A DNA stretch of 64,000 bases from IMG/VR virus record IMGVR_UViG_3300031452_000163; one strand, written 5' to 3'. The notes under the pieces were generated by a model. It had not been told where the DNA came from. It ran no database searches and worked only from the letters and a program-made list of their open reading frames with translations. Source of the DNA: a virus. Below are positions 1,198 to 63,213 of the stretch, piece after piece (position 1 is the first letter of the stretch; every line of letters starts with the position of its first letter). The translations under genes were made by a program, and so were the position numbers.

Positions 1198-1245
1198 ACT
1201 GCGGTCTGAATGCGGGATGAGCGGGCAGGCCTATTTTTGAAACGC

Positions 1246-1284
1246 AAAAAAGCCGCCGCCCAGCCCGAAGACCAAGACGGCGGC
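1246..1284 (-). terminator. probable intrinsic terminator
   Basis: GCCGCCG..CGGCGGC stem followed by T6 on the minus strand. Confidence 0.45.
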
Positions 1285-1301
1285 AAAGAGAGGAGTTGTC
1301 A

Positions 1302-2373: not shown

Positions 2374-2463
2374 TGGCGGTCCTTTCGTCGTCTCAGGTTG
2401 GGCAAGCCTAGGTGATCCATGGTATAATGACCATATAAACCATGGCAATTTAGGGGGGCGTAT

Positions 2464-2997
2464 ATGGCTGAAGTTGTGACGTTGCCAGAGTTGGCGACGG
2501 AGTTAGGCATGGATCGATCGAACATGCGCAAGTATGTTTTGAAGAACGGGTTTCAGGTATTGCAGGTGCGCACGCCAGAATCGAAGGGTCAATTGGTTCT
2601 AGCACTGTCCCAGGAAGATGCAGAAGCGGTTAGGGAGTCTCGAATGCGACAGGGCTTCCTCATTTCGGGCGTGTCCGGTGTATCCATCGAAGTGGGAAGT
2701 GGCTCCTTCTACATCGTGCAAATTGTTCCAGACTTGGATGAGCACCGAGTGAAATTCGGATTCGCAACCGACACAATGCGACGACTCGATTCCTACAAAA
2801 CGATTTCACCTTCCGCTCAATTGGTCAAGATGTGGCCATGTCGAGCATCGTGGGAGATAGCGGCTATTGCCAGCATCTGTCGTGTTGGCTGTGTCTCGAT
2901 GGGTGGCGAGGTCTTTACCTGTGACAGTTTGGAAAGCATCGTGGAGCGTGGGGACGCCTTTTTTGAGATCATGCCGTCTATCGCCAAGGACTCCTAG
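2464..2997 (+). CDS. HTH + GIY-YIG-like (T5orf172-type) endonuclease
   Basis: N-terminal TLPELATELGMDRSNMRKY HTH; FYIVQ..RVKFGFATDTMRRLDSYKTISP motif. Confidence 0.7.
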   Translation: MAEVVTLPELATELGMDRSNMRKYVLKNGFQVLQVRTPESKGQLVLALSQEDAEAVRESRMRQGFLISGVSGVSIEVGSGSFYIVQIVPDLDEHRVKFGFATDTMRRLDSYKTISPSAQLVKMWPCRASWEIAAIASICRVGCVSMGGEVFTCDSLESIVERGDAFFEIMPSIAKDS

Positions 2998-3050
2998 CCA
3001 AGTTTCGACCAGCCGGAGCTTGATACAAATACAGTGAAAGCGAGAGCGAA

Positions 3051-3692
3051 GTGAACAACAGCAAATCAGCCATTAAAGTTCCGGCTCTGTCAACGGCTTA
3101 TGGTGGGCGCATCTTTGGGAGTCGTTACAAGGCGCGGTGGGCTCTATTCATGGACCTAATCGGCATAGAGTACGCTTACAGACACGACGGAAATTATCAG
3201 TCTTTTGGCGCATGGGAGCCGGATTTTTGTGTGGATGCTGGAGCCACATACCTTCATGTCTCGCCACTTCCAATTGAATCGGAACGGTTGAATCAGGCGA
3301 AATTTTTTGTTGAAAAAGCAAATGCAGAGCAAGGCTTTACCCAGCTCTTTTTGATTCATGGCCGCATCGGTGCACCTCGGCGCGCGGATGACAGTCCATA
3401 CGTAATGAGGAGGCTTTGTAAGCATGATTCGCGAAGCTTTCCGAAAGACCCGCCAAGTTTCGCGCTTGAGGATATCCGCTATGCGTGGGGTGAGTGCGCG
3501 AATTGTTTCGATGTTTCGCCGAATTTTGCAGATGGCGATCCTTCATGTCGGTTTTGCGGAGAAGACACGACGTGCACCTCGGAAGCCTTGAAGGAAGCCT
3601 ATCGCGCTGCTCAGTCCATCAAGCTAGATTCCTGGGCCAATCTTCGATTGACGTTGGCAGTGAGGCCGACCAAAGTTGAACTTCTAACCTAA
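3051..3692 (+). CDS. PD-(D/E)XK-like phage protein, degenerate active site
   Basis: TAYGGRIFGSRYKARWALFMDLIGIEY..PDF resembles the FRSRLEARWA..YEPE..PDF..EVK family. Confidence 0.55.
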   Translation: MNNSKSAIKVPALSTAYGGRIFGSRYKARWALFMDLIGIEYAYRHDGNYQSFGAWEPDFCVDAGATYLHVSPLPIESERLNQAKFFVEKANAEQGFTQLFLIHGRIGAPRRADDSPYVMRRLCKHDSRSFPKDPPSFALEDIRYAWGECANCFDVSPNFADGDPSCRFCGEDTTCTSEALKEAYRAAQSIKLDSWANLRLTLAVRPTKVELLT

Positions 3693-8436: not shown

Positions 8437-8656
8437 TTCATTGCCAGTCAAGGCAGAGTAAGCTTACTTTCCGTGCCACTTCGGCGTCCAGGTGGCATGA
8501 CGTGGCCACCAGAACAGATTGAGATAGCGGAAGTTTGGCATGTTGACAGCTCCTCTGCACGGGCTAAAAATGCTAAAATAGAGGGTATAGAAAAGCCTCC
8601 GCGCCCGTGAATCAGACGGACCGGAGGCGTTGAGACAGCCTGTAAGGAGGCCATCT

Positions 8657-9469
8657 GTGACTAGCGTACCAGGAACACGGAGGACGTTCGAGAGACTGCG
8701 TCCACGTGTCGGATTCAAGTTTTGCCGTGACTGCGGAGCCGAAAAGCCGTTAACCGACTTTTACAATGCCACGGGGAACAAAGATGGCAAGCAAACGTCT
8801 TGCCGAGAATGTCAGGACGTCACGAACTACCAGGCTAGAGGTGCATCGGGCAGTTCGCAATTACCGCCTCAAGCACGGGATCGCCTGCTAAGTCGGTGCT
8901 CGCGGCATGGGGATTGTCTGTTATGGACCGGCCCTGTTAGCGTACGAGGTCATGGGAAACTTGAGATCTTAGGCGCTGCTTGGATGGTGCATCGCATGGC
9001 CTATGCACTGGAAGTGGGGTCCATTCCGCCTCGCATGATTGTGTATCAGGTATGCGGGAACAAATTATGCGTAGAGCCATCACACTTGAAGGCCAAACGG
9101 TCAAGAAGCCTGGTTGGTGATGGCACCAAGTTTTGTTCACGATGTGGTGAGGTGTTACCGCTGTCCGAGTTTTATGGACAGAGAGGAGCAAATGGGAGGC
9201 TTCAGGCATACTGCAAAGACTGCCATCGATTTGATGCATATGGCATTACTCAGCGGGAGTACGACGACCTGCTGAAAATACAGGCCGGACTGTGTGCCAT
9301 TTGCGATATGCCATCGAATGGCCGCAGTCTATCTATTGACCACTGTCACTCAAGCGGCGCGGTACGTAGACTATTGTGTTCAAGTTGCAACGTCGCATTG
9401 GGGATGTTGCGAGACGATATCCGTCTATTTCATCGAGCTATCGAGTATTTGTCAAAGGCTAGCGTCTAG
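8657..9469 (+). CDS. free-standing endonuclease: Zn fingers + degenerate HNH + endonuclease VII domain
   Basis: AAGGAGG SD; two C2..FY..C2 fingers; HRMAY..CGNKLCVEPSHL; QAGLCAIC..IDHCH..LLCSSCNVALG. Confidence 0.85.
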   Translation: MTSVPGTRRTFERLRPRVGFKFCRDCGAEKPLTDFYNATGNKDGKQTSCRECQDVTNYQARGASGSSQLPPQARDRLLSRCSRHGDCLLWTGPVSVRGHGKLEILGAAWMVHRMAYALEVGSIPPRMIVYQVCGNKLCVEPSHLKAKRSRSLVGDGTKFCSRCGEVLPLSEFYGQRGANGRLQAYCKDCHRFDAYGITQREYDDLLKIQAGLCAICDMPSNGRSLSIDHCHSSGAVRRLLCSSCNVALGMLRDDIRLFHRAIEYLSKASV

Positions 9470-11276
9470 AAGCCTTGCATCTGTGGGAAGCGGGCCAGCA
9501 GCGTAGGACGCCTCGCCCAAATCGAGTTTGCATATAACCGTGGCTACGTCCATAGAAGTGTCCCCGGTTAAGATCGCGTCCTAGCCATCGGTAATGATTT
9601 AGCCACTCCGATGCCGCCCATGAAAGTCCGCCGTGATACCTATAAGGGAGAGAGCCCCATGCCTTCACAGGGAACGGTTTGGGGGCAGGTTTCGGTGTTG
9701 GTCCGGGCGTTCCTGCGTAGTACGCCTGGGTGTACCTCCACCATGGCAGGAAATTTCCGTAAAAATTGGTATACGCGACTGAACCGTAGGGAAGGTTGAC
9801 GTAGAAGGAGTCGGAATACGCGTAACCGGCATTGTAGAGAGAATACGCGAAGGGGAATTGAACCCGGCCACCGTGATAAGCGATGGCATCGCGGTAGTAT
9901 CGTGCTGCGAGCTCCACGGAGATGGTTGGATTGTCGAGTGCATCACGGATCCCTGAGCAGATGCCATATCCACACGCGGTGCCATTCGTAAATTGGAACG
10001 TTCCCCAACTGGTGTCACCGGGGATGCAGCAGCGGTCGGCGTATTGATTCATACCCGATTCGGTACCCGCCGTGGCAGCGATTCCGAGAGGACTCACGCC
10101 ATAGCGTTTACCCCAGTAATTAATGAGGCTGGAGATGTCGTAGTGCGTGTCGTGGAGAATGACGCCATGTACGGTGTTGCCAACGCCTTCAAGCGCGCCG
10201 GGTGGAATGTTCAGGATAGGCGGGAGATATTTGGGTCCATGGTTTGGCACAAAGGTAGGAGGCTTCGGACCGGCCCGTGGGGCCAGCGGCGCAATCCGCA
10301 TGTACTCCAGTCCAAAGCTGTACTGTCGTACAAAATCGTAGGACAGCCAACCACGACCGGCCAGACCCCATCCGGTGGTCCACTGGTTTTGCACCTCAAC
10401 GCCGCCCACGGCGCCACCGGGGAATCGCTTGGTGTCGTCATAGGCAATGACGACGTTTTCGTGGCCGCCGCGCGACTGTTCGCCGGGTTGAGGTATATCG
10501 ATCAGGCCACTTGTCGCGCTGGCGTTGTCATACTCCGGGTAGACCGGTAGTCCGATGAGTACCGGATGATTGACGGTGATGGCCGCCTTGATACCGTCCA
10601 CCGCACCCTGTCCCGCACCTTGGGCAAAACCTGAGATGTTGGTAAATCCGACATGCATCCGATACACGGCGGCTTCGGCTCGGAGCGTGGGATCAGTCGG
10701 GAACGTTGACGCGACAACGAATGGCGGGTAGGCATACTGCTTGAGCTTGGGAATGCCGAGCGTGTTGACCACTTCGGCATCTTGATCCGGCCATGAGCCA
10801 AAGTCGCCATGTGAGTAGGTTGCTCCGTAATAATCGTACATAAATCTTGGGGAAAATCTTAGCCACGATGTCGGGTGCTGCATGCGATATTCGTAGGTCA
10901 AATCCCAGGCAGTGGCGAAAGCCGCGCAAGCACCAAGTCCATCTTGCGTTGTCACACCGGGATAGCGAGCCAGGTTGATGCTGTTGGCTAGCGGCGCGGT
11001 GACGCGATGATCGGGAATGACGCGAACGGTCGTTGGCACTACGATATTAGCCTGAAAGTGACTGGCGTAGTATTCTGCTCCGGTCTTGCCGGCGAATGCG
11101 CCCAGAGCAAAGACCGCCAAAAAGGCGATAGCCAGCACCAGTGCATGCGGCGTCGCGTAGCCGCCTGCTCTATGCGTCGGGTTGAGGACGTGCTTGAGTG
11201 GGCATGTGTTGCGCCGGAGGATGAGTCCGAGAACAATGAGGGTGGCAATAATGCCGAGAATGGCGAGTGTGTGCAA
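9459..11276 (-). CDS. endolysin: C1A papain-like peptidase + SLT lytic transglycosylase
   Basis: QDGLGAC, GGHENVV, QNQW (Cys-His-Asn triad); GTESG and WGTFQF SLT motifs; two N-terminal hydrophobic segments. Confidence 0.8.
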   Translation of the reverse strand: MHTLAILGIIATLIVLGLILRRNTCPLKHVLNPTHRAGGYATPHALVLAIAFLAVFALGAFAGKTGAEYYASHFQANIVVPTTVRVIPDHRVTAPLANSINLARYPGVTTQDGLGACAAFATAWDLTYEYRMQHPTSWLRFSPRFMYDYYGATYSHGDFGSWPDQDAEVVNTLGIPKLKQYAYPPFVVASTFPTDPTLRAEAAVYRMHVGFTNISGFAQGAGQGAVDGIKAAITVNHPVLIGLPVYPEYDNASATSGLIDIPQPGEQSRGGHENVVIAYDDTKRFPGGAVGGVEVQNQWTTGWGLAGRGWLSYDFVRQYSFGLEYMRIAPLAPRAGPKPPTFVPNHGPKYLPPILNIPPGALEGVGNTVHGVILHDTHYDISSLINYWGKRYGVSPLGIAATAGTESGMNQYADRCCIPGDTSWGTFQFTNGTACGYGICSGIRDALDNPTISVELAARYYRDAIAYHGGRVQFPFAYSLYNAGYAYSDSFYVNLPYGSVAYTNFYGNFLPWWRYTQAYYAGTPGPTPKPAPKPFPVKAWGSLPYRYHGGLSWAASEWLNHYRWLGRDLNRGHFYGRSHGYMQTRFGRGVLRCWPASHRCKASRR

Positions 11277-43159: not shown

Positions 43160-44724
43160 GGATCGAATAACCCCGCTGGTACAGCCAGGTCATAGTCGGC
43201 GGCGGCGGCAATATCCGCCGCGCGGAAGGCGTGAATATCGCCAAAGAGACGCGAGAGTGCTAACGATGAATTATCCACCTGATCGTCATGCGCCCCATTG
43301 GGGAAGGCTGTATGCTCTTCAATCCAATCATTAACCCACGGCGCTGATTCGGGCAGTGCCACGCGACCGGATTCGATGTACGGCGTGACGGCGGTGAACC
43401 GGGAAACCTTGCTCTCACTGCCAACACTCACCGCAATCACCGGTATGAACGTTTCGCGTTGGAGTGTTTGAATCAGCGATTGACCCGACGCCGCCTTTTC
43501 CACCAGTACCGCGCTGGGCTGCCACTTGGCAAACTGGTCCTTTGCCACCCGAACTAATTCGGGGAACTCTATGCGCTGCCGGTAAACATCCAGCACATAG
43601 GCGCGGTTCTGAGAGAGCGCCCAAGTGGAGCACACACTGTAGTCGGCGGTTTGATTGGCCTGGAATGCGGTATCCCAGACCTGGATAATTTGCGATGCCT
43701 GCGAACGGTCAAATGCCCCATATCGCTGCCACCATTCCCGTTTGACGATGCCACCCTCGGTGGCCTGCACTTCCTGCTGCGACTCGCTGAGGAAGGCACG
43801 TAGGCCGTAGGTGTCTATCGCATGCTGGCAGGCATCCAGGCCCTGCCCGGCCCACAATGGCGTCCCGGCAATGATCACCGAGCGCCCATCACACCGTTCA
43901 GTGACCAACCCCTGCACAGCCGGAAACGGGCCGGAGACAATGCGCCCAACCAGGAAGTCGGCGGTGTTGGAAGAACGGCCGGCCAGACGGCTGAAGATGG
44001 AATCGGGATGGATGAGATTCTGCACGGCCAGCACGGCCAGATCGGTTGATCCGGCGGGGAGCAGCGATTGAGTCAGCGTAGCAATTTTGCGTTCGGTGGC
44101 ACGCTGCGAATCATGCACGTTATCCACATCATCAATAACGATGAAGTCTGGCCGGTCATCGGCCATTTTGATGCCACGTGCCGCTGTATCCAGTCCCACT
44201 GAGTCAAGCGTGAAGCCGGCTCCGGTGCTCAGTCGGTTGCGTCGCCAGCCCCGTGATGCGCCGTATTTGCCAATGTTCCGTGCGCCCAGTGACGGGTAGT
44301 GCCGACTGAGTGCGTCTGACTCCAGCAGAGCGGCAACCGACAGCACATGTTTGTCTGCTAAGTCCTGTGTCTCGGATATGTACAGCCCATAGCGTCGCAC
44401 CCGACGAGCACCAACCGCCACACAGGCCAACTCCGCCGAACTCGATTTTGCTCCACCCCTGGGCCATATCGCTACCAGCGGAGGCGGTCCCACGCCGCCT
44501 TTAATCTTCCACACCCATTCCCAAAATGCCTCATGATGTGGGCCGAAGCCGGCGGTGACGTTGCGCGGAAAAAGCGTGGTGAGCCACAAGCGCCAGTCCG
44601 ACTCAAACAGCGGAGCGGGGTCATGTGCGTGGGGATCATCACTCGGATTGCCGGAGACCTGGGCGAGTATATGCCCCCATTGGGCTACGCTGTCGAAGGG
44701 CGCTGGTAATGGCATCGTGTACAT
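43156..44724 (-). CDS. terL: terminase large subunit
   Basis: WPRGGAKSS Walker A, FIVIDD Walker B, QVWDTA and AHDDQVD nuclease motifs. Confidence 0.95.
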   Translation of the reverse strand: MYTMPLPAPFDSVAQWGHILAQVSGNPSDDPHAHDPAPLFESDWRLWLTTLFPRNVTAGFGPHHEAFWEWVWKIKGGVGPPPLVAIWPRGGAKSSSAELACVAVGARRVRRYGLYISETQDLADKHVLSVAALLESDALSRHYPSLGARNIGKYGASRGWRRNRLSTGAGFTLDSVGLDTAARGIKMADDRPDFIVIDDVDNVHDSQRATERKIATLTQSLLPAGSTDLAVLAVQNLIHPDSIFSRLAGRSSNTADFLVGRIVSGPFPAVQGLVTERCDGRSVIIAGTPLWAGQGLDACQHAIDTYGLRAFLSESQQEVQATEGGIVKREWWQRYGAFDRSQASQIIQVWDTAFQANQTADYSVCSTWALSQNRAYVLDVYRQRIEFPELVRVAKDQFAKWQPSAVLVEKAASGQSLIQTLQRETFIPVIAVSVGSESKVSRFTAVTPYIESGRVALPESAPWVNDWIEEHTAFPNGAHDDQVDNSSLALSRLFGDIHAFRAADIAAAADYDLAVPAGLFDP

Positions 44725-45364
44725 CGGGCGCCGCCTCCGCTATCGTCCGTAACAACGCCGTCTGAAATGCTTCCATCTCCTGCGCGTTATACAACTTGTC
44801 CAACACGGACAGGAGCAACGTCATTTGGCCCTTGATGCTGTCTGATGCTTTGAGCAGCAGCTCTCGCGGGTCGGCGTGTTTGGTTTCCACGTGATCGACA
44901 ATCCAGCCCGCGCCCTCTATCTCTCCAATAATCTCCGAGAGGCGACGCTTCCGGCGGATTGGTCTGCCATCCTCACCGGGGCTATGGTAAATGACGGAAA
45001 TGTCCCCGGCGCGTGGATCAATGCTGTATCGGGTCAAATCCTCCGGGTCACGGAGCCAGCGATCCAGGGCGTCAGAGAGCAGATTGGCGCGTTCGACCTG
45101 GCGTGTTAGCTGCTGGAGAAGATCGAGCGCATGGATCTGATGATCTTCGTTCTGGCGCGCCAATTCTGTCTGTGCAGTACTATTTTTTTTGGTGCGTTCC
45201 GCCTCAGCCAACAGCTGGGCCAAATGCTCTTTTTTATGCCGTCTAACGCATGTTTCAGTGAGCGAATAATCCGCCGCTATTCGTTGATTCGATTCGCCAT
45301 GAATCAACGATTTGTCTATATCTTTCCGTTTCGGGTGAGTACAAACAGTGCATTGACGAGACAT
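44639..45364 (-). CDS. probable terminase small subunit (N-terminal HTH)
   Basis: CTVCTHP.R..ID..L..GES.Q.IA..Y..RRH..EH; overlaps terL. Confidence 0.7.
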   Translation of the reverse strand: MSRQCTVCTHPKRKDIDKSLIHGESNQRIAADYSLTETCVRRHKKEHLAQLLAEAERTKKNSTAQTELARQNEDHQIHALDLLQQLTRQVERANLLSDALDRWLRDPEDLTRYSIDPRAGDISVIYHSPGEDGRPIRRKRRLSEIIGEIEGAGWIVDHVETKHADPRELLLKASDSIKGQMTLLLSVLDKLYNAQEMEAFQTALLRTIAEAAPDVHDAITSALRQRSPMGAYTRPGLRQSE

Positions 45365-45592
45365 GATCCACCTCAATCGTCACAATCGCACTCATAGCAC
45401 TCATGACCCAGACGATGGACCAGCCACTCGACACAGCGATAGTACCGAAAACACGTCACGGTGAATGGAGTACAGCCAGTAGAGAGACGCAGAAGAGTTA
45501 GCATTTGCAAGCCCTATTCCCGTAGACCACCTCCTGCCGCCTGAAACAGATCGCCAGCGTGGAGCGCCAGAGATGTTTCCACAGCGCACCAT

Positions 45593-47390: not shown

Positions 47391-47575
47391 TTTTCCTGCA
47401 TCAGCCTCACGACAACCTCATAGGGCGGCACCGGAAAGAAGCGCGGCTCTACGACTATCACGCCACATGATTCGCACGTATAGACACGCCACCTCTTCAG
47501 GTCTCCACTATAAATCGACTCGGTATATCCCATGGCCACAACCTCGAAATCATTCGTGCATCTCGGACAAATCAT
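47387..47575 (-). CDS. zinc-ribbon protein
   Basis: CPRC..CESC. Confidence 0.6.
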   Translation of the reverse strand: MICPRCTNDFEVVAMGYTESIYSGDLKRWRVYTCESCGVIVVEPRFFPVPPYEVVVRLMQEK

Positions 47576-48230
47576 GGCCTTCCTCCTCCTCGTCAGTATT
47601 CCTCAAGGAAATAGCCGCTACCTCTTCCCGCTCTCGCTTCCTCTCTGCGATCACCTCCGTCGGCACTTCCTCTCGGTTATCGTCCCGCACCTGCCGGCGA
47701 CGGCGCACCGCATACCAGTAACCATCACCCAACACAGCGCGACCACGACTCGCCAGGTGCTCTACCCGATCCACCGTAATATGCTGCATCTCCGCTATCT
47801 GCTCCTGGCGGTAGCCGTGCTCTCGTAGCTCCAGTACCGTGGATACCTCCGGGGAATGCACTCGCAGCCAAGCCAGGCGCGCATCATCACCTCGCGCCTC
47901 TCTCCACTCCTCCGGCGCAACGAACTGCCGGCCACGGCGCACTAACCGCTGGGCCGTGCGTACCGACACTCCCATAGCCGCCGCTATCTGCGCCATGCCA
48001 TGTTTGGCCTGATGCAGCGTGTACGCGCGAGAGGCTCGCGGGTCAAACTCCTGCAATCGCAGCAACTGTTCCGCCGGACTCCATCCACACCGGGCATGAT
48101 CGAGGTAACGCACGAACTCACCGCTCAACTCCGGGCCGACGATGGTATTCTGATGCCGATCCGCCGACGCGGGGCCTTCAGCCGGAGCACGGCCAACCGT
48201 GAGCCGCATGGGTATATCCGTGGTGCTCAT
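47550..48230 (-). CDS. tandem sigma70 region-4-like HTH regulator (probable late activator/antiterminator)
   Basis: GMAQIAAAMGVSVRTAQRLVRRGR and GYRQEQIAEMQHITVDRVEHLASRGR; sits just before the late operon. Confidence 0.7.
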   Translation of the reverse strand: MSTTDIPMRLTVGRAPAEGPASADRHQNTIVGPELSGEFVRYLDHARCGWSPAEQLLRLQEFDPRASRAYTLHQAKHGMAQIAAAMGVSVRTAQRLVRRGRQFVAPEEWREARGDDARLAWLRVHSPEVSTVLELREHGYRQEQIAEMQHITVDRVEHLASRGRAVLGDGYWYAVRRRRQVRDDNREEVPTEVIAERKREREEVAAISLRNTDEEEEGHDLSEMHE

Positions 48231-48810: not shown

Positions 48811-49286
48811 CGGGGCTGTATCGGGTCACCAAACGACCAGTCGTAGACCGGACAGCCACCACAGCTCTTTACGCCATGCAGGACTTTGTATAAGCCCTTA
48901 TCCTCCGTCGGGCAGGAAAACAGTGGCGACCGCAACTGAAACAGCAGTGGATAGAGCATCGTTGGATGCTGATCCGCCCACACCACATCGTGACGTGTCG
49001 TAAGCATGGCCAGACAGCTATAGGCACGTGCAACGTCACCAAACAACGCAGTGAATTGGGAGTCAAACGGCCAGGCCGCAAACGTATCGCAGCAGGCATC
49101 AGAGCAGAGAGGAAACGCGGATCGCTCAGAGTGCGTCCCGCCGTACACGTGTCGCTTCCAGACCTGCACCTCACGGCCTTTCTCGTACCGAGTCTGTGGT
49201 GCGCGATTTGTTCCGCAGACTAGACACACGTAGTCGGCCCCGGTGGGCTTGTCGAGCATGGCTACTCCCACCGGTGACCACAACAC
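48807..49286 (-). CDS. hypothetical Cys-rich protein
   Basis: CLVC..CSDACC; coupled ORF. Confidence 0.5.
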   Translation of the reverse strand: MLWSPVGVAMLDKPTGADYVCLVCGTNRAPQTRYEKGREVQVWKRHVYGGTHSERSAFPLCSDACCDTFAAWPFDSQFTALFGDVARAYSCLAMLTTRHDVVWADQHPTMLYPLLFQLRSPLFSCPTEDKGLYKVLHGVKSCGGCPVYDWSFGDPIQPR

Positions 49287-49468
49287 ATGCAGTGCATGTG
49301 GTTGTTCAGATCACGGACGTAGCGGTGTCCGGTACGATGCAGACAATCGTACACATCGGTTGGGCGGTACGGATGTTTGGCGGTAAGCGCCGGCGGGAGC
49401 GCATCGTTTTCGTCGCCCTGGTCGGCATGGGGATGAAGGTAATTCACGGTTGATCTCCCTGCGGTCAA
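49262..49468 (-). CDS. small Zn-ribbon-like protein
   Basis: CLHRTGH..CMCCG. Confidence 0.45.
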   Translation of the reverse strand: MTAGRSTVNYLHPHADQGDENDALPPALTAKHPYRPTDVYDCLHRTGHRYVRDLNNHMHCMCCGHRWE

Positions 49469-49521: not shown

Positions 49522-49716
49522 TTACTCCGAGAAGATGATTCCCTTTTCAGCCCACATAAAGACCTCTTCTAACTTCGTAACGGCGACGGATCTCCTCCGA
49601 TTATCGGGCAAAACAGATAATATGTCCATTAAAGCCACGCACCCTGCCCGAACACTCTTGATGTTTTCTCTCTGCGATTCAGTTGGTTCCCGGACCTCAA
49701 GCGGATCAGCGTACAT
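49522..49716 (-). CDS. Acb2/Tad1-like helical hairpin (candidate cyclic-nucleotide sponge)
   Basis: PTESQRENIKSVR..LPDNRRRSVAVTKLEEVFMWAEKGI resembles T4 Vs.4/Acb2 (AKTKLKEASMWA); AGGAGG SD. Confidence 0.7.
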   Translation of the reverse strand: MYADPLEVREPTESQRENIKSVRAGCVALMDILSVLPDNRRRSVAVTKLEEVFMWAEKGIIFSE

Positions 49717-49888
49717 GCGTTTCCTCCTTCACGGGCATCTCACCCCATAGTTTCGCGTCGAACGCTCGCAACCGTGCCCATCTGCACGTTTCGCGTCCAT
49801 CTGGCCCCAGCGACTTTTCTTCGATTGGATGGAACCGTCCTCTTTCCTCAGCGCCCATGTGGTCCATGATTTCCTTTGCCTGATGCAT
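49706..49888 (-). CDS. hypothetical protein
   Basis: AAGGAG SD. Confidence 0.45.
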   Translation of the reverse strand: MHQAKEIMDHMGAEERGRFHPIEEKSLGPDGRETCRWARLRAFDAKLWGEMPVKEETHVR

Positions 49889-49964: not shown

Positions 49965-50351
49965 TCAATTCAGGCATGTAGCCGTCACCCAGACTTGGAA
50001 ATGCTGGTCTCTCTTTGCTGGCGTGACAACCTTTTGTGCACGAAAATCAAATACATAGCGATCATCAACCCCCAAGCGACGACAGAGCACATCCTGTATG
50101 ACTTTCGAGCCGGAGTCAACATCGCGTGGTTCAGGGATATGCATCACCAGGTGGATGGCAAGCGTCCAATTACCAGGCGGTAGCGGTTTCCAGCCAGCAG
50201 CCATCAAGAGATCGTAGGCGTTCTGTTTCCACTGTTTCACCGGGGGGTTCGAGTAGAAACGTTTTTGCGCGGCGTTGAAGGCATAGGTGCGGTTAATCGA
50301 CGGCGGGAGCGGGAGCGTTGCGGTGAAAGGTTCTAGAGAAAACTCGATCAT
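49965..50351 (-). CDS. rusA: RusA-family Holliday junction resolvase
   Basis: LPLPPSIN..RDVDSGSKVIQDVL..GVDDRYV. Confidence 0.85.
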   Translation of the reverse strand: MIEFSLEPFTATLPLPPSINRTYAFNAAQKRFYSNPPVKQWKQNAYDLLMAAGWKPLPPGNWTLAIHLVMHIPEPRDVDSGSKVIQDVLCRRLGVDDRYVFDFRAQKVVTPAKRDQHFQVWVTATCLN

Positions 50352-50358
50352 GACCCCG

Positions 50359-50874
50359 CTATGACAGATGAGATTGAACATGGGAGACCATGGCCTGGAT
50401 ATCAACATCGTGAGACTCAAGCATATCCCACCAATCGCGTGAACGGAGCAGCTTTATCCATTCTCGATGACAGATCGAGCAAGATATACTCACCGGCTTA
50501 TAGATATCGTTGTTTTCATCGTCCACCGGCGAATGGAATTGCAGCGCCGGAAGCGCCGCGTCCTCAATCGGCGAAGACGCCTCATCATTGACTGGAAAAT
50601 CCGCATCAACAAAAGCCCAAGCGCGCTTCTTGATATCGTCGTCTACTCGATAGAAATGACGACGATATGTGCATACATAGTGTGTCGACGGCTGGTTTAT
50701 CGGTAGACCGTAAAATCCTTCATCTCCACAAGTCGGACAGGTTAACGGTAACCCATCAATTGCTTGCCGCATTAATGCTACGCACTCGAACACGGACAGT
50801 GGCAACCCGCCGTATTCATCCCTTACCGTCATCCCGTCTCCTACGGCCTCCATGGCAGCGCATGGCGTGGTCAA
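50359..50874 (-). CDS. hypothetical protein with Zn-ribbon motifs
   Basis: CPTC, CSIC; coupled ORF. Confidence 0.5.
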   Translation of the reverse strand: MTTPCAAMEAVGDGMTVRDEYGGLPLSVFECVALMRQAIDGLPLTCPTCGDEGFYGLPINQPSTHYVCTYRRHFYRVDDDIKKRAWAFVDADFPVNDEASSPIEDAALPALQFHSPVDDENNDIYKPVSISCSICHREWIKLLRSRDWWDMLESHDVDIQAMVSHVQSHLS

Positions 50875-51155
50875 GATAGTCTCGTACGCTCTTCGTCCAA
50901 AAATCGCATTGCCTCGCGCAATCCAGCGGCCTTGCCACGTAGATAGTCAGAGTCCTCAAAATTACCCGAATTATCGCTACCGACTGCGTTGAAGTTCATG
51001 CGACTGACCGCATTGACAACGCAATCTCGCTCAGTTTCTGGCACTGGCAACAACTGACCAGTGTGCACTATGGAATTCATCTCAATCCACCCTCCACAGG
51101 AGCGAAATACTGCTAGAGTATCGCGCCGAAACGTGACGAGTGTCAAATATAACAC
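50871..51155 (-). CDS. hypothetical protein
   Basis: GGAG SD; YLRGKAAGLREAM motif. Confidence 0.5.
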   Translation of the reverse strand: MLYLTLVTFRRDTLAVFRSCGGWIEMNSIVHTGQLLPVPETERDCVVNAVSRMNFNAVGSDNSGNFEDSDYLRGKAAGLREAMRFLDEERTRLS

Positions 51156-51235: not shown

Positions 51236-51263
51236 TATATTCTATGGATATCTGTATAATATA
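51236..51263 (+). promoter_or_regulatory. 28-bp imperfect palindromic operator overlapping a TATAAT -10 box
   Basis: TATATTCTATGGATATCTGTATAATATA is 22/28 self-complementary; TATAAT at 51255-51260. Confidence 0.7.
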
Positions 51264-51296
51264 GGTATCAGAACACAACAGAGAGAGGAACCACCA

Positions 51297-51665
51297 ATGA
51301 CCACCGAGACCGCAACCGAAACAACCATCTCCAGCCGCTCACGCAATCTTGGCTACGGCTGGACCAATCAACCACGCCAGTACCGCAACAGTCGCGGCGA
51401 TAGTCTCCTGAGCGTCTCACGCTCTACAGGCCCGGATGTCAGCGGCGGTCTGAAAACAATCCTCACCGAGCGGGCGCGGGCACAACGCGGCAACGCGGGC
51501 AACGACTGGAGCGAGGCGCTGTTCGTCGCCGGGCGTCGCATCGCGTACGCCACCAGCGACACGACATACATCTACAATGGCAACTCCCACGCCTCTGTAG
51601 GAGACATCATCCTGGCACTGCGAGAGGGACACACGGTCGCCGTCCGCCTGGAGCACCCCGAGTGA
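51297..51665 (+). CDS. 122-aa orphan protein, candidate anti-CRISPR/anti-defence
   Basis: GAGGA SD; first gene of the cassette, GTGA-coupled to cse2-HTH; function inferred from context only. Confidence 0.6.
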   Translation: MTTETATETTISSRSRNLGYGWTNQPRQYRNSRGDSLLSVSRSTGPDVSGGLKTILTERARAQRGNAGNDWSEALFVAGRRIAYATSDTTYIYNGNSHASVGDIILALREGHTVAVRLEHPE

Positions 51666-52318
51666 CCACCGCCGCATTCCTCGACGCCCTGAGCCAGCTC
51701 TCACGACGAGAGCTGGCCCTCATCAAAAAGAGCAGCGGGGAGGCGATCCCCCCAGGCACCGCGTTGGAGATACCCGAAGGCGCGGACGAACGCCCCTATG
51801 GAATGGTGGCCTTCCTGTACGCCCGCTATCCGGTTGTAGCCGGGGAACGTGGAGACCTGGGCGCACTCATGCGGGTAATCAACGTCCGTAATCCCGACCA
51901 GGGGGCCGAACAGCGATTTATGGAGATGCTCAATCGCGATCTCGACGGTCTCCGCAAACCGCTGGAATGGACGCTAGCCATGGCGGAGATAGAAAAACTC
52001 AGCGTTGACTGGGGCCAGCTCCTCGATGACCTCACCCACTGGGAGGAGCCGGACCGCCCGGTGCAGCGAGCATGGGCGCGATCGTTCTGGGGCCAAACTC
52101 TGCCAGACGACGATGACCCTGAGATGACCATGGCGGATGCAGTGGTCGCGTTTGGCCTCGATCCCGGCTATCAGCAGCAACTCAGCCGAGCCGCAGCTAC
52201 CGAACAGTTTTCAGCACGCCGCGTAGGGAGAGCGTGGGTCACTCGGCATTCAGCGATACAGGAGTGGTTGGAGAATCGAGCCGGCCCCGGTAAACGGGCG
52301 AAACGAGTCACAGAGTAG
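51662..52318 (+). CDS. cse2: orphan type I-E Cse2 (CasB/Cas11) fused to a C-terminal excisionase/MerR-like HTH
   Basis: FLDALSQL, YGMVAFLYA, GAEQRFMEML..D, VDWGQLLDDLTHWEEPDRPVQRAWARSFWG match Cse2; MTMADA..ARRVGRAWV..IQEWL is a winged HTH. Confidence 0.88.
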   Translation: MTTAAFLDALSQLSRRELALIKKSSGEAIPPGTALEIPEGADERPYGMVAFLYARYPVVAGERGDLGALMRVINVRNPDQGAEQRFMEMLNRDLDGLRKPLEWTLAMAEIEKLSVDWGQLLDDLTHWEEPDRPVQRAWARSFWGQTLPDDDDPEMTMADAVVAFGLDPGYQQQLSRAAATEQFSARRVGRAWVTRHSAIQEWLENRAGPGKRAKRVTE

Positions 52319-52472: not shown

Positions 52473-52613
52473 CTAGCGCGACCGCTGCCACTCCGTAACC
52501 CACTCAGGATGAATCCGCGGATCGCAGCTCATCCATGCCAGCAGCCGGTCGATGCGTGCCTGATAGGCGAGGCAGTGACGGAGGAAGGCACCCTCGCGGT
52601 CGTCAGGCGTCAC
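52473..52613 (-). CDS. 46-aa hypothetical protein
   Basis: GTGA coupling to the DUF4352 gene. Confidence 0.4.
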   Translation of the reverse strand: MTPDDREGAFLRHCLAYQARIDRLLAWMSCDPRIHPEWVTEWQRSR

Positions 52614-53347
52614 CCGTGGATGGTCCAGTTGGCCGTGAAATCTGATGGTTTGTAGATGATCGTCGCCGGTGCTCCCGAGGATATTTGGAAGACGATATCG
52701 CGCCGAATGGTGCCGCCAGGCGCAAGCGTCGTGCCAGACGAGCCGAGATCGTTGCTAGTCAGAGACGACGCGAATTCGGGGTTGGTGATAACGCCATTTG
52801 ACTGCGCCGTAAATCCGGTATCCGCCACATCGGTATTATCTGTTCGGTAGTTGTGAAAGGTCCAGTGAGTCACTGCGTATTCATTCCCCGGATGTGGCTT
52901 CTCAAATTCAGTCCCGCTAGAGAGCGTCACCCCAGTGAGTGTCACATCGAGATTATCCGGCACATGGATCAGTGACCCAACCCCAGCGGTCTTCGAGGTA
53001 GGCGGTGACGTCGGAGGTGGCGATGTCGGGAGAGGCCGACTCGTTGCAGATGGATGATTCGGAACAACCGCGCCAGTGTTTGGCGTTAAAGTGGAACTAC
53101 TGGAGCCTGATTTACTGCCACCGCCAATGGCCGTCGCGATAATCGCAATTACTACGATCAAGACAATCAGACCGAGGCAACCGATACCAGCCTTCCGAAA
53201 GAAGCCACCCTTTTTCTGCTGAACCACCACCACCGGCGTGGCTCCTGACTGATTGCCAGCCACCGGAAACGCCGTGTTGCACTTCTGGCAGACCACCGCG
53301 TCAGGCTTACTCTTCGCGCCACAGTTTGAACAAAACTTATCCGCCAT
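52610..53347 (-). CDS. zinc-ribbon + TM + DUF4352 protein (candidate superinfection exclusion)
   Basis: FCSNCG..CQKC; GCLGLIVLIVV TM; LDVTLTGV..YAVTHWTF.N..TLAPGG..DIVFQI. Confidence 0.8.
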   Translation of the reverse strand: MADKFCSNCGAKSKPDAVVCQKCNTAFPVAGNQSGATPVVVVQQKKGGFFRKAGIGCLGLIVLIVVIAIIATAIGGGSKSGSSSSTLTPNTGAVVPNHPSATSRPLPTSPPPTSPPTSKTAGVGSLIHVPDNLDVTLTGVTLSSGTEFEKPHPGNEYAVTHWTFHNYRTDNTDVADTGFTAQSNGVITNPEFASSLTSNDLGSSGTTLAPGGTIRRDIVFQISSGAPATIIYKPSDFTANWTIHG

Positions 53348-53848: not shown

Positions 53849-54184
53849 TTACGCTACGCCTATTGTGTCAACATCTCCATAATGCCGTACCGCCCACCAG
53901 TGCGCCCTTTCCTCCGATGGTCCAACCCAAGCATGTGCCAGCTCATGGCAGAGGATCGCCCGTAAATGCCAGGGCCAGGCCCAATACAGCCACAGCGCGA
54001 GCACGATTCGCCTGTGGTGGCAATCGCAGAAGGCCGCTTGCTCTGGCGGCAAGTCGGCCCACACCACATCGACGCCGGCGGCAAGCGCATCCCGCGCGAG
54101 CACGTCCAAGCCAAACACGTGATGCCCTGGCCGCCCATGCGCGTTATAGAGGTACCCGTCTGTGTCGATCACACTAACGCTCAT
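53849..54184 (-). CDS. ImmA/IrrE-family metallopeptidase (anti-repressor)
   Basis: LCHELAH (HExxH), SEERA..WA; coupled to the repressor. Confidence 0.85.
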   Translation of the reverse strand: MSVSVIDTDGYLYNAHGRPGHHVFGLDVLARDALAAGVDVVWADLPPEQAAFCDCHHRRIVLALWLYWAWPWHLRAILCHELAHAWVGPSEERAHWWAVRHYGDVDTIGVA

Positions 54185-54660
54185 GGCGCTTCCTCGTCCG
54201 TCCAGCCGACGGACTCGCGATAGGCATCATCCGCAATATCGGGGCGGTTGTAAGCGGCATGTTCCGCCTCCTCTAAACGTTCGGCGGCGTACAACTCCTG
54301 CATCTCCCGTACTAGCCGGAGATGACCCAGAGCGACACGACGCGCATGGGGCGGTAAGGCACTGTAGATCCTGGTCACTTCCGGCGGTGGCGGTTCTTCA
54401 TCAGCGTCGCCCCACAGTCCTAGCACGCCGAATATCACATTGGGACTCACCCCAAACGCTCTAGCAATGCCGGCTGCCTGAAGCACCGTCGGCTGAGGAG
54501 CACCACGGAGCAGAGACCCGACTGTTTGCGGCATAAGGTCGGACTGGCGAGCTAGCTCCGATAGGCTCCATCCTCGCGCTCGCAGATTATCCTCAATCCA
54601 CTGAGCATAGCGAGCAGCGGCCTCACGCGACAGATTGCCCCGCTTCTCCGGCTTATCCAT
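54181..54660 (-). CDS. XRE-family immunity repressor (probably leaderless)
   Basis: LRARGWSLSELARQSDLMPQTVGSLLRG..IARAFGVS; TATCAT 5 nt before ATG. Confidence 0.9.
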   Translation of the reverse strand: MDKPEKRGNLSREAAARYAQWIEDNLRARGWSLSELARQSDLMPQTVGSLLRGAPQPTVLQAAGIARAFGVSPNVIFGVLGLWGDADEEPPPPEVTRIYSALPPHARRVALGHLRLVREMQELYAAERLEEAEHAAYNRPDIADDAYRESVGWTDEEAP

Positions 54661-55566: not shown

Positions 55567-55775
55567 TGAACATCCTGTCAGACCATGCTGCCCGAATATT
55601 CAAAGAATCCCACAGACTCACCGAAACCCTGAATCCTTACCTTAGCGTCGATTGCGCCGCTTTGGTTTCTGCGATGGACGCTATTGTATTCGCAATCGAG
55701 GGCCTCACGATCCAGTTGGCAGAGAACGCCGAGCGTACTCAGAGCGTGGATGCACATGTGGAGACCGGGTTTTGA
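55563..55775 (+). CDS. hypothetical protein
   Basis: ATGA coupling. Confidence 0.5.
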   Translation: MMNILSDHAARIFKESHRLTETLNPYLSVDCAALVSAMDAIVFAIEGLTIQLAENAERTQSVDAHVETGF

Positions 55776-56536
55776 GCGAGGTGTACTACAAGCTGCTAAA
55801 CCGGGACGGCACGACGCCGCTGGGGCATGGAAAATGGCCGCTGCCGGACGGGTACCAACCGGGTGAATGGCTGCCACCAATCGAGGGCGTACTTTTGCCA
55901 TGCATGAATGGCTACCACATCCTCACCTGGGATCAACTGCTCACATTGTTTTGGAACGGCGAGCACCTCTACGAGATTGGGGTGGATGGTGAGGTGATAG
56001 ATGCCGGTGCCAAATGCGTCTGCCGTCACGCACGAACAATTCGGCGGATCAAAACGTGGAATGACCGAAATCTGCGATTGTTCGTCTGTGATTGTGTTGA
56101 GCGAGTCTTGCACGTATTCGAAAATCAGGCGCCGGACGACGCAAGACCTCGGCGCACAATCGAAACTGCGCGACGATTTGCGCTCGGGCTAGCAACATCG
56201 AGTGAGCTAACCGCGGCCAAGGCCGCTGCCAGGGCCGCTGCCGAGAACGTTGCCCTGACCGCTGCCGGGGCCGCTGCCGAGAACGTTGCCCTGACCGCTG
56301 CCGGGGCCGCTGCCGAGAACGTTGCCCTGACCGCTGCCGGGGACGTTGCCTGGGCCGCTGCCGGGGCCGTTGCCGGGGGCGTTGCCCTGGCCGCTGCCGG
56401 GGCCGTTGCCGGGGGCGTTGCCCTGGCCGCTGCCGGGGACGTTGCCTGGGCCGCTGCCGGGGACGTTGCCTGGGCCGCTGAACGGCAATGGCAGCGAGAT
56501 CATCTCGCCTCCTACCTCACCGGAGCTATCGCATGA
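55772..56536 (+). CDS. DUF7666-like + Imm5-like protein with Ala-rich repeats
   Basis: C.NGYH..W..LYE; LRLFVCDCVERVL..PDDARPR..IE.AR. Confidence 0.7.
   Translation: MSEVYYKLLNRDGTTPLGHGKWPLPDGYQPGEWLPPIEGVLLPCMNGYHILTWDQLLTLFWNGEHLYEIGVDGEVIDAGAKCVCRHARTIRRIKTWNDRNLRLFVCDCVERVLHVFENQAPDDARPRRTIETARRFALGLATSSELTAAKAAARAAAENVALTAAGAAAENVALTAAGAAAENVALTAAGDVAWAAAGAVAGGVALAAAGAVAGGVALAAAGDVAWAAAGDVAWAAERQWQRDHLASYLTGAIA
56207..56480 (+). repeat. in-frame coding tandem repeats (33- and 24-nt units)
   Basis: AAAENVALTAAG x3, AAAGAVAGGVAL x2, AAAGDVAW x3. Confidence 0.85.
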
Positions 56537-58998: not shown

Positions 58999-59834
58999 AC
59001 ATCGACCCTAGCCAACGAGTCGCCCGGTCACGCCCGTGTCGAATCTGCGGGGGCTTTAACGAGGCCCCTCGCGGGCATAGAGTGCGCTGTGCCGGGTTTC
59101 TCTCGAAAGACGGCGAGTGGTCCCACTGCACTCGCGAAGAGCACGCGGGGGGGCTGCCCATGGACACGAATTCGTGCATGCCAACCTACGCGCACCGACT
59201 CACCGGGACCTGCAAATGCGGGGTGACTCACGACAGAGCAGTGTCGCCGGTATCGGTAGAGGGGCTGGAGAGCATAGGTTCCCACCAGTCAAGACAACGA
59301 AAAAGAGATCGGGGAACATGGGACCGCTGTTACGTGTATACGGATGAGCACGGTATAGGTCGTCATCGTACCGTCCGATTGCGTCCGAAGGGTTTTTTCC
59401 AACAGCACAATGTAGACGGTGAATGGGAGCGCGGGCTCGGCGACATCGAGACCGTACCCTACGGACTGCCACGGCTCATCAGGGCTGATCCGAGAGACCC
59501 GACCTTTATGACCGAGGGCGAAAAAGACTGTGAATCCCTCTGGTTTGTGGGACTGAACGCCACGACGTACACAAACGGAGTATGGAAGGCGCACTATAAC
59601 CAGTGGATCGTCGGGCGGCACGTGGTGATCGTGGAGGATAACGACGACGCTGGGCGGGCGCGAACACGCCGGCTCTTACGCCACCTAAAAGACGTGGCGG
59701 AGACGGTGCGCATTGTGTCGTTTCCCGATTTGCCTGTCGGCGGCGATGTGAGCGACTGGCTGGCCGGCGGCGGAACTGCGGAACAGCTGCTGACACCGGT
59801 TGGCAATCCTTATATAGGAGCGATCCGGGCATGA
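58995..59834 (+). CDS. Zn-finger + TOPRIM primase
   Basis: PCRICG; FMTEGEKD; VIVEDNDDAG; GGDVSDWL. Confidence 0.9.
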   Translation: MNIDPSQRVARSRPCRICGGFNEAPRGHRVRCAGFLSKDGEWSHCTREEHAGGLPMDTNSCMPTYAHRLTGTCKCGVTHDRAVSPVSVEGLESIGSHQSRQRKRDRGTWDRCYVYTDEHGIGRHRTVRLRPKGFFQQHNVDGEWERGLGDIETVPYGLPRLIRADPRDPTFMTEGEKDCESLWFVGLNATTYTNGVWKAHYNQWIVGRHVVIVEDNDDAGRARTRRLLRHLKDVAETVRIVSFPDLPVGGDVSDWLAGGGTAEQLLTPVGNPYIGAIRA

Positions 59835-61255
59835 CGGCAAATCGAAATCAACTGAGGGTGGTAGTGCGAGATGGGAATGAGGATGTCAATGATGTACCAA
59901 CCGGCGGCTATCCACTCACAGACCTCGGCAATGGGGAGCGATACTCGGCACTGCACGGCGCGGATGTACGCTACATCGGCAACTGGGATCGGTACTACGT
60001 GTGGGACGGTGTGTACTGGCACCACGATACCACCGGTGAGGTACTACGACGCGCCAAGCTGACTGCCCGCTCCATCCGAGACGAGGCAACCGCAATCCGT
60101 GAGAGCGGCGAGGATGACCGGGCCACAGAGACACTCAAACACGCGCTGAGGAGCGAGAGCGGTAGTCGCATCCGAGAGATGGTCAACTGCGCACGAGTCG
60201 AGACCACCATTGCCTCCACGCCGGACGTGTTTGACAACGATCCACTCCTGCTCACCTGCCCGAACGGGACGGTTGATTTGCGGACCGGTGAACTCGGAGC
60301 GTATCGTCGCGAGGATCTCATTACCAAATGCACCAGCGCGGCCTACGAGCCTGGCGGGTCAGCGGATTTGTGGTTGGCGTGTATTGAGCGGTGGATGGGT
60401 GGAAACGATCGACTGATGCTGTTCCTACAACGGGCGCTAGGGGCGAGTATCACGGGGCTCACCGGCGACCGGGTGCTCTATTTTTGTTTCGGACCCGGTG
60501 CCAATGGCAAATCCGTCCTCATTGACACCATCCAGGACATTTTCGGAGATTACGCTAAATCGGTCCGTCCTGAGGCGTTGATGGTCAAACAGGGGAACGA
60601 TATTCCCAACGAGATCGCGGCGCTGGTGGGCGCGCGCTTTGTAGCCACCACGGAGATCGAGGAGGGCTCACGTCTGGCAGAGAGCCTGGTCAAACAGTTG
60701 ACGGGTGGCGACCGGATTAGCGCCCGATTCATGCGTGCGGAATTTTTCGAATTCCGGCCGGTGATGAAAATCTGGATGGCCGGTAACCATAAGCCCAATG
60801 TACGCGGGACGGATCAGGCGATATGGGATCGGATACTGACCATCCCATTTACCGAGGTCATTCCACCGGCGGAACGCGACCCAAATCTCCGCGCCAAACT
60901 TCGGGATGAATGGCCGGGAATCCTGGCATGGATCGTTCAGGGCTGTTTGATGTGGCAGCGTGACGGGCTCAATCCACCGGACGATGTGCGAGCCGCAACA
61001 AATGAATACCGCCGAGAAATGGATGAGTTGGGCCAGTTCCTGGAGGATTGCTGTGAGTTTGACCCGCAGCTCCTCGTATCGGCGGGGAAGCTCTATGAAC
61101 GGTACACCCAGTGGGCATCTGATGCCGGAGAGAAACGGGCGTGGACGAAAACTATGCTCGGCCGCAAGCTTCATGAACGCGGCTATACCGACAATCGCGC
61201 CAATTCCACCCGCTTTTGGGAGGGGTTGGACCTGAAGTCGGGCGGCTCCGCGTGA
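59831..61255 (+). CDS. P4-family (D5-like) primase/SF3 helicase
   Basis: LTDLGNGER D5_N; FGPGANGKS Walker A; LVKQLTGGDRISARF; GNHKP. Confidence 0.93.
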   Translation: MTANRNQLRVVVRDGNEDVNDVPTGGYPLTDLGNGERYSALHGADVRYIGNWDRYYVWDGVYWHHDTTGEVLRRAKLTARSIRDEATAIRESGEDDRATETLKHALRSESGSRIREMVNCARVETTIASTPDVFDNDPLLLTCPNGTVDLRTGELGAYRREDLITKCTSAAYEPGGSADLWLACIERWMGGNDRLMLFLQRALGASITGLTGDRVLYFCFGPGANGKSVLIDTIQDIFGDYAKSVRPEALMVKQGNDIPNEIAALVGARFVATTEIEEGSRLAESLVKQLTGGDRISARFMRAEFFEFRPVMKIWMAGNHKPNVRGTDQAIWDRILTIPFTEVIPPAERDPNLRAKLRDEWPGILAWIVQGCLMWQRDGLNPPDDVRAATNEYRREMDELGQFLEDCCEFDPQLLVSAGKLYERYTQWASDAGEKRAWTKTMLGRKLHERGYTDNRANSTRFWEGLDLKSGGSA

Positions 61256-61745: not shown

Positions 61746-62110
61746 AATCCGTCCAGTGCCCCACCTGCGGCCAGCTCCGGCCTGATGTGCTCGCCGAGTA
61801 TCTCTCGGCGGCGTTGCGTCTGGTTGAGGGTGCAGAGCAGGAGGAGGCGGTGACATTTGCACGGGCTGCCGAACTGCTCGCGGTTAGCGAGACCACAATA
61901 CGCGGGTTGGTCGCATCCGGGCAGCTCCCGGCGGTCACCATCGCGGATACTCGGAGCAGGAGGATTCGCCGTGCGGCGATCTCCGAGTATCTACGGCAGG
62001 CCGAGACCAGGAGTGTGCGATGGCAGGACGACGAGGCAGCAGCGACGATGTTTGCACCGGGCAAGACCAGAGGACGGCAGCTGAAAAAAGCCACAGGAAA
62101 AAGCGCGTGA
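61742..62110 (+). CDS. xis: excisionase-like HTH_17 protein with N-terminal Zn ribbon
   Basis: VTFARAAELLAVSETTIRGLVASGQLPAV..RRIRRAAISEYL; coupled to int. Confidence 0.75.
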   Translation: MKSVQCPTCGQLRPDVLAEYLSAALRLVEGAEQEEAVTFARAAELLAVSETTIRGLVASGQLPAVTIADTRSRRIRRAAISEYLRQAETRSVRWQDDEAAATMFAPGKTRGRQLKKATGKSA

Positions 62111-63213
62111 ATAAGCAGGGCACGGTGTACGAGCGAAAGGACGGGCGCTGGGTGGCGGCGCTCTCGCTCGATTCACGGCAACGGGTCACCCGGTACTGTG
62201 CCACCAGAGCCGCGGCGGAGGAGGCATTGGCGCAACTGGTGCAACTGCGCGAACGTGGCCGGCTCTCGCAGACTGGACGGCAGACGCTCGCGACGTATCT
62301 CGCGCAGTGGCTGGCCAACAAACACGCCAGTGTGCGGGACCATACATTTGTCATGTACCGGGCCCAACTAGCTCACGTCATTATTCGCCTGGGCCATGTT
62401 CGTCTTTCCGACCTCCAGCCGGGTCAGATACGTGCACTAGGCACGGCATTGCTCGATACTGGCTATGCGACGGCGACGGTCAACCAGTGCCTGGTGATTC
62501 TAAAAATGGCGCTACGGGATGCCGAGGCGGATGGATTGATTGATCGGTCACCGGGGGCACATGTGCGACCACCACGCATCAATCAGGAGGAGCGGCGTTG
62601 GCTGTCCTCATCACAGGTTCGTGCGTTTCTGCGATCCTCAACGGAGTCGGAGTGGTATGCGCTCTGGATGCTGCTACTGGATACCGGTATGCGGATCGGG
62701 GAGGCGACGGCGTTGCGATGGAGTGAGGTCGACAGCGATGCTGGCACAATCCTGGTGTTGGCCACGGTGACACATCGCACTGGTCAAGGGGCAGTGCGTG
62801 GCGAGCCGAAAACGCCCTGCTCACGCCGCTTGCTCCATCTTGGACCGGATACGCTCGCCGCGCTCAAAACGCATAGCCCAGCGGTAAAGCGTCGTCGGGC
62901 GAGTACACGGGGTTGGGTCGATCAAGATTTAGTGTTCCCCAATACACACGGCGGGTTTCTGTGCGTCAAACAGGTCAACATCTGCCTGATGCGTGACCTG
63001 GGAATAGCGGGCCTGCCGCGCTTCACCGCGCATGAGTTGCGGCATACCATGGCCAGTCAGTGGCTCAACGACGGAGAGGACGTGCGTGTGGTGCAGGAGC
63101 GGCTCGGTCATGCCAGTGCCGCCATGACCTTGGACATTTACGGCCATGTCGCACCAGCCATGCATCGGGAGGCGGCGCAACGTGCAGCGAATCGGAGGAG
63201 GCAGACGTCGTGA
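62107..63213 (+). CDS. int: tyrosine integrase
   Basis: Arm-binding GTVYERKDGRWVA; TGMRIGEA (R), PKT (K), AHELRHT (HxxR), LGH, DIYGH (Y). Confidence 0.95.
   Translation: MNKQGTVYERKDGRWVAALSLDSRQRVTRYCATRAAAEEALAQLVQLRERGRLSQTGRQTLATYLAQWLANKHASVRDHTFVMYRAQLAHVIIRLGHVRLSDLQPGQIRALGTALLDTGYATATVNQCLVILKMALRDAEADGLIDRSPGAHVRPPRINQEERRWLSSSQVRAFLRSSTESEWYALWMLLLDTGMRIGEATALRWSEVDSDAGTILVLATVTHRTGQGAVRGEPKTPCSRRLLHLGPDTLAALKTHSPAVKRRRASTRGWVDQDLVFPNTHGGFLCVKQVNICLMRDLGIAGLPRFTAHELRHTMASQWLNDGEDVRVVQERLGHASAAMTLDIYGHVAPAMHREAAQRAANRRRQTS

Follow-up and report, generated by a model that had tools for sequence, protein, structure and literature searches.

A minimal hairpin-only protein of the Acb2 family with an altered peripheral pocket: a candidate nucleotide-signal sponge of a temperate phage

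We describe a small protein of the Acb2 family, here called acb2-like, which is encoded in a 64,000-nt stretch of viral DNA (the window) from an IMG/VR record. Its family membership is secure from sequence profiles and structure, and apart from a missing stacking tyrosine it is unremarkable within a family whose known homologues number in the thousands. Judged from its residues, a hexameric sponge for nucleotide signals is the most likely function of acb2-like. As the more specific reading, which we consider likely though by no means settled, we propose a minimal, hairpin-only anti-defence sponge of the Acb2 family, whose hexamer would trap cyclic trinucleotides and whose peripheral pocket has changed. 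The finding adds a confidently assigned Acb2-family candidate anti-signalling sponge to a temperate phage of a poorly studied host group. Since a candidate Cse2-based anti-CRISPR cassette is present in the same phage, counter-defences appear to be stacked. The features discussed are compiled in Table 1.

Table 1. Features of the acb2-like gene and of its surroundings in the window
Feature	Coordinates	Strand	Basis
Sigma-70 region 4/HTH protein	47550-48230	-	
acb2-like CDS, minimal Acb2/Tad1-hairpin protein (64 aa)	49522..49716	-	ORF listing; PF24729; phrog_1454; AlphaFold
Codons R40-K58, R-x6-T cyclic-trinucleotide dyad and hexamer-interface motif	49543..49599	-	Alignment
Codon R23, equivalent to PaMx33 K26, T4 K23 and Acb2_43 K19 (phosphate contact)	49648..49650	-	Alignments
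Codons D4-T12 (DPLEVREPT), segment lining the peripheral ligand pocket in Acb2 proteins	49681..49707	-	Alignment of 115 sequences
Upstream 60-aa ORF	49706..49888	-	ORF listing; minus-strand sequence
Shine-Dalgarno sequence AAGGAGG, 6 nt 5' of the ATG	49723..49729	-	Direct reading of the minus-strand sequence
RusA-like resolvase	49965-50420	-	
Cse2-domain protein	51662-52318	+	Pfam match
D5-type primase-helicase	59831-61255	+	
Tyrosine integrase	62020-63213	+	

Family membership and predicted fold

The Acb2/Tad1 hairpin profile PF24729 (gathering cut-off 27 bits) covers residues 9-60 of acb2-like with its positions 3-56 of 58, reaching 50.8 bits (E 1.9e-13), and the match was repeated on the provirus record. 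The protein is also hit by phrog_1454, whose function is not annotated (E 1.4e-13); NCBIfam held no matching model. Among 1.84 billion representatives, phmmer found 134 homologues at E<=1e-3, mostly of 60-90 aa; the matches P0064 (TPR/DUF6362) and P0080 (RCC1) in this search were treated as spurious, being without PF24729. A profile built from about 105 of the closest homologues aligned end to end with Acb2 homolog 43 (Acb2_43; 9ptq, E 3e-10) in the PDB, and further with CmTad1 (8kbb, 1.5e-5), T4 Vs.4 (7uq2, 1e-4) and CbTad1 (7uav, 1.4e-4), the alignment to Tad1 being confined to around residues 87-116. Several homologues carry additional modules. P0020 (190 aa) joins the hairpin (residues 6-59) to a RyR domain at its C-terminus (PF02026, E 2e-12), whereas P0125, P0065, P0011 and P0047 (120-300 aa) have the hairpin C-terminally and no recognised domain ahead of it.

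The first-pass annotation had called the protein shorter than characterised members, which is only partly so: the solved and characterised Acb2_43 has 76 aa, and 39 of 136 proteins (acb2-like, its 134 representative homologues and two references, JBD67 and T4) have 60-69 aa. With its 64 aa, acb2-like is typical of a large "minimal" hairpin-only clade of 60-90 aa.

The AlphaFold model, computed with the homologue alignment as input, has a mean pLDDT of 95.3 and consists of an extended N-terminal segment (residues 1-12) followed by helices 13-34 and 40-62, with no strands predicted; the two-helix protein anticipated from the sequence is thus borne out. Acb2 chains occupy all top four ranks in Foldseek (T4 Vs.4 chains at 1-3, 9ptq at 4), albeit with all E-values above 0.001; the top match, T4 Vs.4 (7uq2), has a probability of 1.00 and a TMq of 0.74. 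VIA-align gave a Z of 8.0 for 9ptq_A (rmsd 1.4 A over 59 residues), 7.3 for 7uq2_D and 6.7 for 8h2x_E. Since a two-helix hairpin is small and common, and unrelated helical hairpins score Z 6-6.7 as well, structure alone is weak for family assignment; we therefore based the family call on the sequence profiles and took the structure as agreement. The suggested Acb2/Tad1-like identity holds on both counts, with PF24729 above its cut-off and 9ptq, 7uq2 and 8h2x as the best structural matches. The likeness to Tad1, however, extends to the shared hairpin alone. Tad1 proteins (123-138 aa) bear their gcADPR/dinucleotide pocket in an N-terminal antiparallel beta-sheet domain, which is absent from acb2-like, whereas their C-terminal hairpin is homologous, with the dyad and hexamer-interface residues discussed below in the same register.

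Helix 2: trinucleotide dyad and hexamer interface

Residues 40-60 of acb2-like read RRRSVAVTKLEEVFMWAEKGI, and the stretch from R40 to K58 (RRRSVAVTKLEEVFMWAEK) holds every helix-2 residue that is near-invariant across the family: R40, T47, K48, L49, E50, E51, M54, W55 and K58. Residue counts refer to 115 aligned sequences of <=110 aa, that is 113 (acb2-like plus family homologues) and two references from annotated records, JBD67 Acb2 (L002:486-812) and T4 vs.4 (L005:5079-5345). The arginine is found in 108 of these, the threonine in 104 and the tryptophan in 114. The register is the same in the HMM alignment and in the structural alignment to 9ptq. In this register, R40/T47 correspond to PaMx33 R67/T74 and to CmTad1 R88/T95, and K48, E50, E51, M54, W55 and K58 match CmTad1 K96, Q98, E99, M102, W103 and K106, respectively. 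A helix motif of the type A.TKL.EA.MW, which the first-pass annotation had given for T4 Vs.4 and Tad1, is indeed present: it reads IAKTKLKEASMWA in the former and AITKLQECLMW in CmTad1.

Mutational data are available for most of these positions. The binding of cA3 by PaMx33 Acb2 is abolished by R67A and sharply reduced by T74A (PMC10312549). In CmTad1, R88 and T95 take part in trinucleotide binding and help to build the hexamer, which falls into dimers when Q98, E99, M102, W103 and K106 are mutated (10.1101/2023.11.15.567273). T4 Vs.4 shares the helix-2 motif AKTKLKEASMWA with acb2-like, but presents the opposite pattern in its pockets: dinucleotides are stacked by Y8 and F82, the arginine position is taken by an aspartate (D61), and cA3 is not bound, whereas acb2-like has the arginine and lacks the tyrosine. 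As T4 Acb2 D61R still fails to bind cA3 for reasons of pocket and helix geometry, the R/T dyad has to be regarded as necessary, but not sufficient. With this reservation, the conserved residues suggest that the trinucleotide pocket of acb2-like probably works.

N-terminal segment and peripheral pocket

The N-terminal segment deviates from the family. The consensus D-P-F-E-Y reads D-P-L-E-V in acb2-like, with L6 in place of a phenylalanine that is present in 85 of the 115 aligned sequences, and V8 in place of a tyrosine present in 78. About a fifth of the sequences (25/115) are non-aromatic at position 8, valine occurring in just two. Homologues from Dormibacterota and Verrucomicrobiota are likewise without the aromatic pair in this segment; all 11 intact relatives from genome assemblies that span it have one (PF[ED]Y, AFEY, AFTY or NFKY). 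V8 aligns with T4 of Acb2_43, Y8 of T4 Vs.4 and Y11 of JBD67/PaMx33, and dinucleotide binding is abolished by Y11A in PaMx33 (PMC10312549) and by Y8A in T4 (PMC12657218). The phosphate-contacting position, in contrast, is kept basic: R23 is the family majority residue (R in 89/115). As judged from these alignments, the peripheral pocket of acb2-like is altered and non-canonical. With both aromatic residues lost, the pocket probably binds canonical cGAMP-type ligands less well or has been retuned to a different signal; it may also have decayed. The expectation in the first-pass annotation that ligand specificity may differ is hence reasonable, the reason being the replacement of the cyclic-dinucleotide stacking tyrosine by valine and not the protein's length.

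Proposed function and alternatives

According to our proposal, acb2-like would be transcribed together with the leftward early genes of the prophage, the protein being made during lytic growth. To judge from its homologues, six protomers of about 7 kDa would form a trimer of dimers, with the helix-2 motif T47-K-L-E-E-x-x-M-W-x-x-K58 as the interface. The hexamer would contain two central pockets, each combining R40 with the T47 of a different protomer, in which CBASS cyclic trinucleotides of the cA3/cAAG type would be trapped. At the dimer interfaces, the N-terminal segment and R23 would line three further, peripheral pockets; with Val for Tyr and Leu for Phe, these would probably bind cGAMP-type ligands less well or would be retuned.

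A narrower version of this proposal, to which we assign a minor but real chance, takes acb2-like for a minimal Acb2, Tyr-less by nature, which has given up the capture of cyclic dinucleotides and retained the central trinucleotide pockets. What might have been gained thereby can be pictured in two ways. The peripheral pocket could have been retuned to a signal new to Acb2, or loss of the tyrosine could let the phage escape Panoptes-type, sponge-sensing defences; these are set off by the sequestration of a decoy dinucleotide by Acb2, but no longer by T4 Y8A and F82C (PMC12657218). The combination of a present arginine and an absent tyrosine makes acb2-like a convenient natural case for testing if the two kinds of pocket in the Acb2 hexamer evolve independently.

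We regard as improbable that acb2-like is a canonical broad-spectrum Acb2, binding cGAMP-type dinucleotides in the peripheral pocket in addition to trinucleotides, with Y2 or F62 supplying the stacking. R23 at the K26 position would fit such a function, as would F62, which lies one residue off the position aligned to T4 F82, a residue that stacks on the bound dinucleotide (PMC12657218); the register at this point is tentative. Moreover, when Hadary et al. tested 46 of 4,204 non-redundant Acb2 homologues from IMG/VR, most of them inhibited at least one CBASS (10.1101/2025.08.24.671296). Against this stand the PaMx33 and T4 tyrosine mutants and the rarity of valine at the position concerned, the additional absence of the neighbouring phenylalanine, and the lack of a proline matching PaMx33 P90. 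The Acb2 proteins of PaMx33 and JBD67 (8h2x, 8h2j; PMC10312549) have the same PF24729 hairpin (59.6 bits for JBD67), including counterparts of R40/T47 (R67/T74) and R23 (K26). They differ from acb2-like by their length of 94-108 aa, a long inter-helix insert, a C-terminal QPE tail containing P90 and the presence of Y11, and the structural Z of 6.7 for PaMx33 Acb2 is no higher than that of generic hairpins.

The closest solved structure by sequence and by fold is Acb2_43 (9ptq). This protein, with threonine at the tyrosine position, binds 3'cADPR and does not inhibit CBASS (10.1101/2025.08.24.671296), which raises the question if acb2-like could similarly be a Thoeris-directed sponge that binds 3'cADPR and not CBASS signals. 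Both are of the minimal hairpin type, lack the canonical tyrosine and have the R-x6-T dyad, and the basic pocket residues K19 and K55, through which Acb2_43 contacts phosphate, align with R23 and K58. Yet the beta-1 residues T4, H5, L6 and V7, by which Acb2_43 contacts 3'cADPR, correspond to the dissimilar V8, R9, E10 and P11. The 76-aa Acb2_43 has N- and C-terminal beta strands, whereas acb2-like ends with helix 2 at residue 64, and so lacks beta-2, and is predicted to have no strand at all. Acb2_43 has MFF where acb2-like retains the family MW(A), and the two proteins are just 24-28% identical. Because the contact residues differ and the terminal strands are absent, acb2-like is no near functional equivalent of Acb2_43 either, and we consider a role against Thoeris quite improbable.

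Very improbable, finally, is a decayed or repurposed hairpin that sequesters no immune signal and serves, e.g., as a small oligomeric scaffold or regulator. In favour of this reading, neither of the two aromatic pocket residues is left, the lineage is a singleton for which no close relatives were found, and the hairpin does occur fused to other modules such as the RyR domain of P0020; against it, the ORF is intact with a strong Shine-Dalgarno sequence, helix 2 retains every near-invariant family residue, and the identical protein is recorded on four contigs.

Gene structure and prophage context

The acb2-like ORF runs uninterrupted from the ATG at 49716 on the minus strand, encoding a protein with the N-terminus MYADPLEV; there is no in-frame start farther upstream. 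The first-pass annotation had the ORF boundaries right but let the protein end too early, as it extends four residues farther, to KGIIFSE. A plus-strand ORF overlapping it (49535-49750) was rejected as a gene, since the family match sits in the minus-strand frame. The ATG is preceded by a near-perfect Shine-Dalgarno sequence, and the acb2-like reading frame begins 11 nt before the end of the 60-aa ORF upstream, overlapping its TGA stop codon (49708-49706). With this spacing and overlap, the gene looks translated, and the arrangement suggests translational coupling with the upstream neighbour, for which no match was obtained in Pfam, PHROG or NCBIfam. A promoter and terminator scan around the gene stayed at chance level.

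Directly 3' of the acb2-like gene, a small minus-strand ORF (49262-49468) has an internal GTG that follows a GGGAG, and is rich in Cys and His at its C-terminus (HMHCMCCGH), which suggests a small zinc-binding protein; neither PHROG nor NCBIfam contained a match.

The window comprises most of a provirus record of 69,957 bp with an estimated completeness of 84%. As this record carries integrase, RusA and terminase genes, acb2-like is prophage-encoded, and its gene sits in a leftward early, nin-like operon of the integrated prophage. Some 80-140 bp separate the operon's first ORF (50871-51155) from the point where the divergent Cse2 cassette begins (51236-51297). The distance of roughly 1.6 kb between this cassette and acb2-like, as originally estimated, is accurate for the cassette start (about 1.5-1.6 kb), the Cse2-domain gene itself being about 1.9 kb away. 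A long block of large minus-strand ORFs occupies the region between roughly 45 kb and 12 kb; a 245-aa ORF in this block (44639-45376) could not be assigned to a Pfam family with confidence.

Some further genes of the record deserve mention. A minus-strand ORF (52610-53347), flanked by the Cse2 cassette on one side and the repressor region on the other, codes for a 245-aa protein in which a zinc ribbon at the N-terminus is combined with a linker rich in Ser, Thr and Pro and a DUF4352 domain (E 3.3e-12); with what appears by eye to be a hydrophobic, transmembrane-like stretch, it may be a surface or exclusion protein. In the early region, near a Cro/C1-type HTH gene (54181-54660), a plus-strand ORF of 294 aa (55652-56536) has an Imm-5-like putative immunity domain (PF21805, E 8.5e-9). 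Elsewhere in the window, a 279-aa fusion of HNH_3 and endonuclease VII (8630-9469, plus strand) adjoins a 605-aa protein (9459-11276, minus strand) that has both a papain-type peptidase and an SLT lytic transglycosylase domain and is likely a lysis or virion-associated hydrolase. At the provirus edge, left of the window, bases 1029-3311 of the provirus record (L006) encode 760 aa with an N6/N4 DNA methylase domain above cut-off (E 2.5e-18), the N-terminal half resembling DEAD/DEAH and Helicase_C domains weakly (E about 1e-4, slightly under the cut-offs).

Relatives in other genomes

A word-index homologue search returned the query alone, meaning that no relative above about 55-60% identity was found. 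In tblastn against GenBank phages there was one weak match, to the Mycobacterium prophage prophiT37-1 (43% identity), and the IMG/VR scan for relatives yielded two distant loci. In a related-loci search made with an alignment of 14 sequences, the nearest homologues came from Chthonomonadaceae and Fimbriimonas MAGs (Armatimonadota), Deinococcus and Melainabacteria. The closest relative, in a Fimbriimonas MAG, adjoins a terminase and a Mu-type portal gene.

Two of the related loci show peculiarities of their own. In Deinococcus aquatilis DSM 23025 (L016:3905-4193), the homologue is normal up to ...SLAVTKLE, after which HQAGRGQHVGEQSHRFQ replaces the EVSMWANK motif; this copy looks frameshifted and is probably inactivated. 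In the Chthonomonadaceae MAG (L008:3854-4000), the frame upstream of the closest genome-borne homologue contains tandem REMN(P/K) pentapeptides, corresponding to a short tandem DNA repeat just before or overlapping the start of the homologue.
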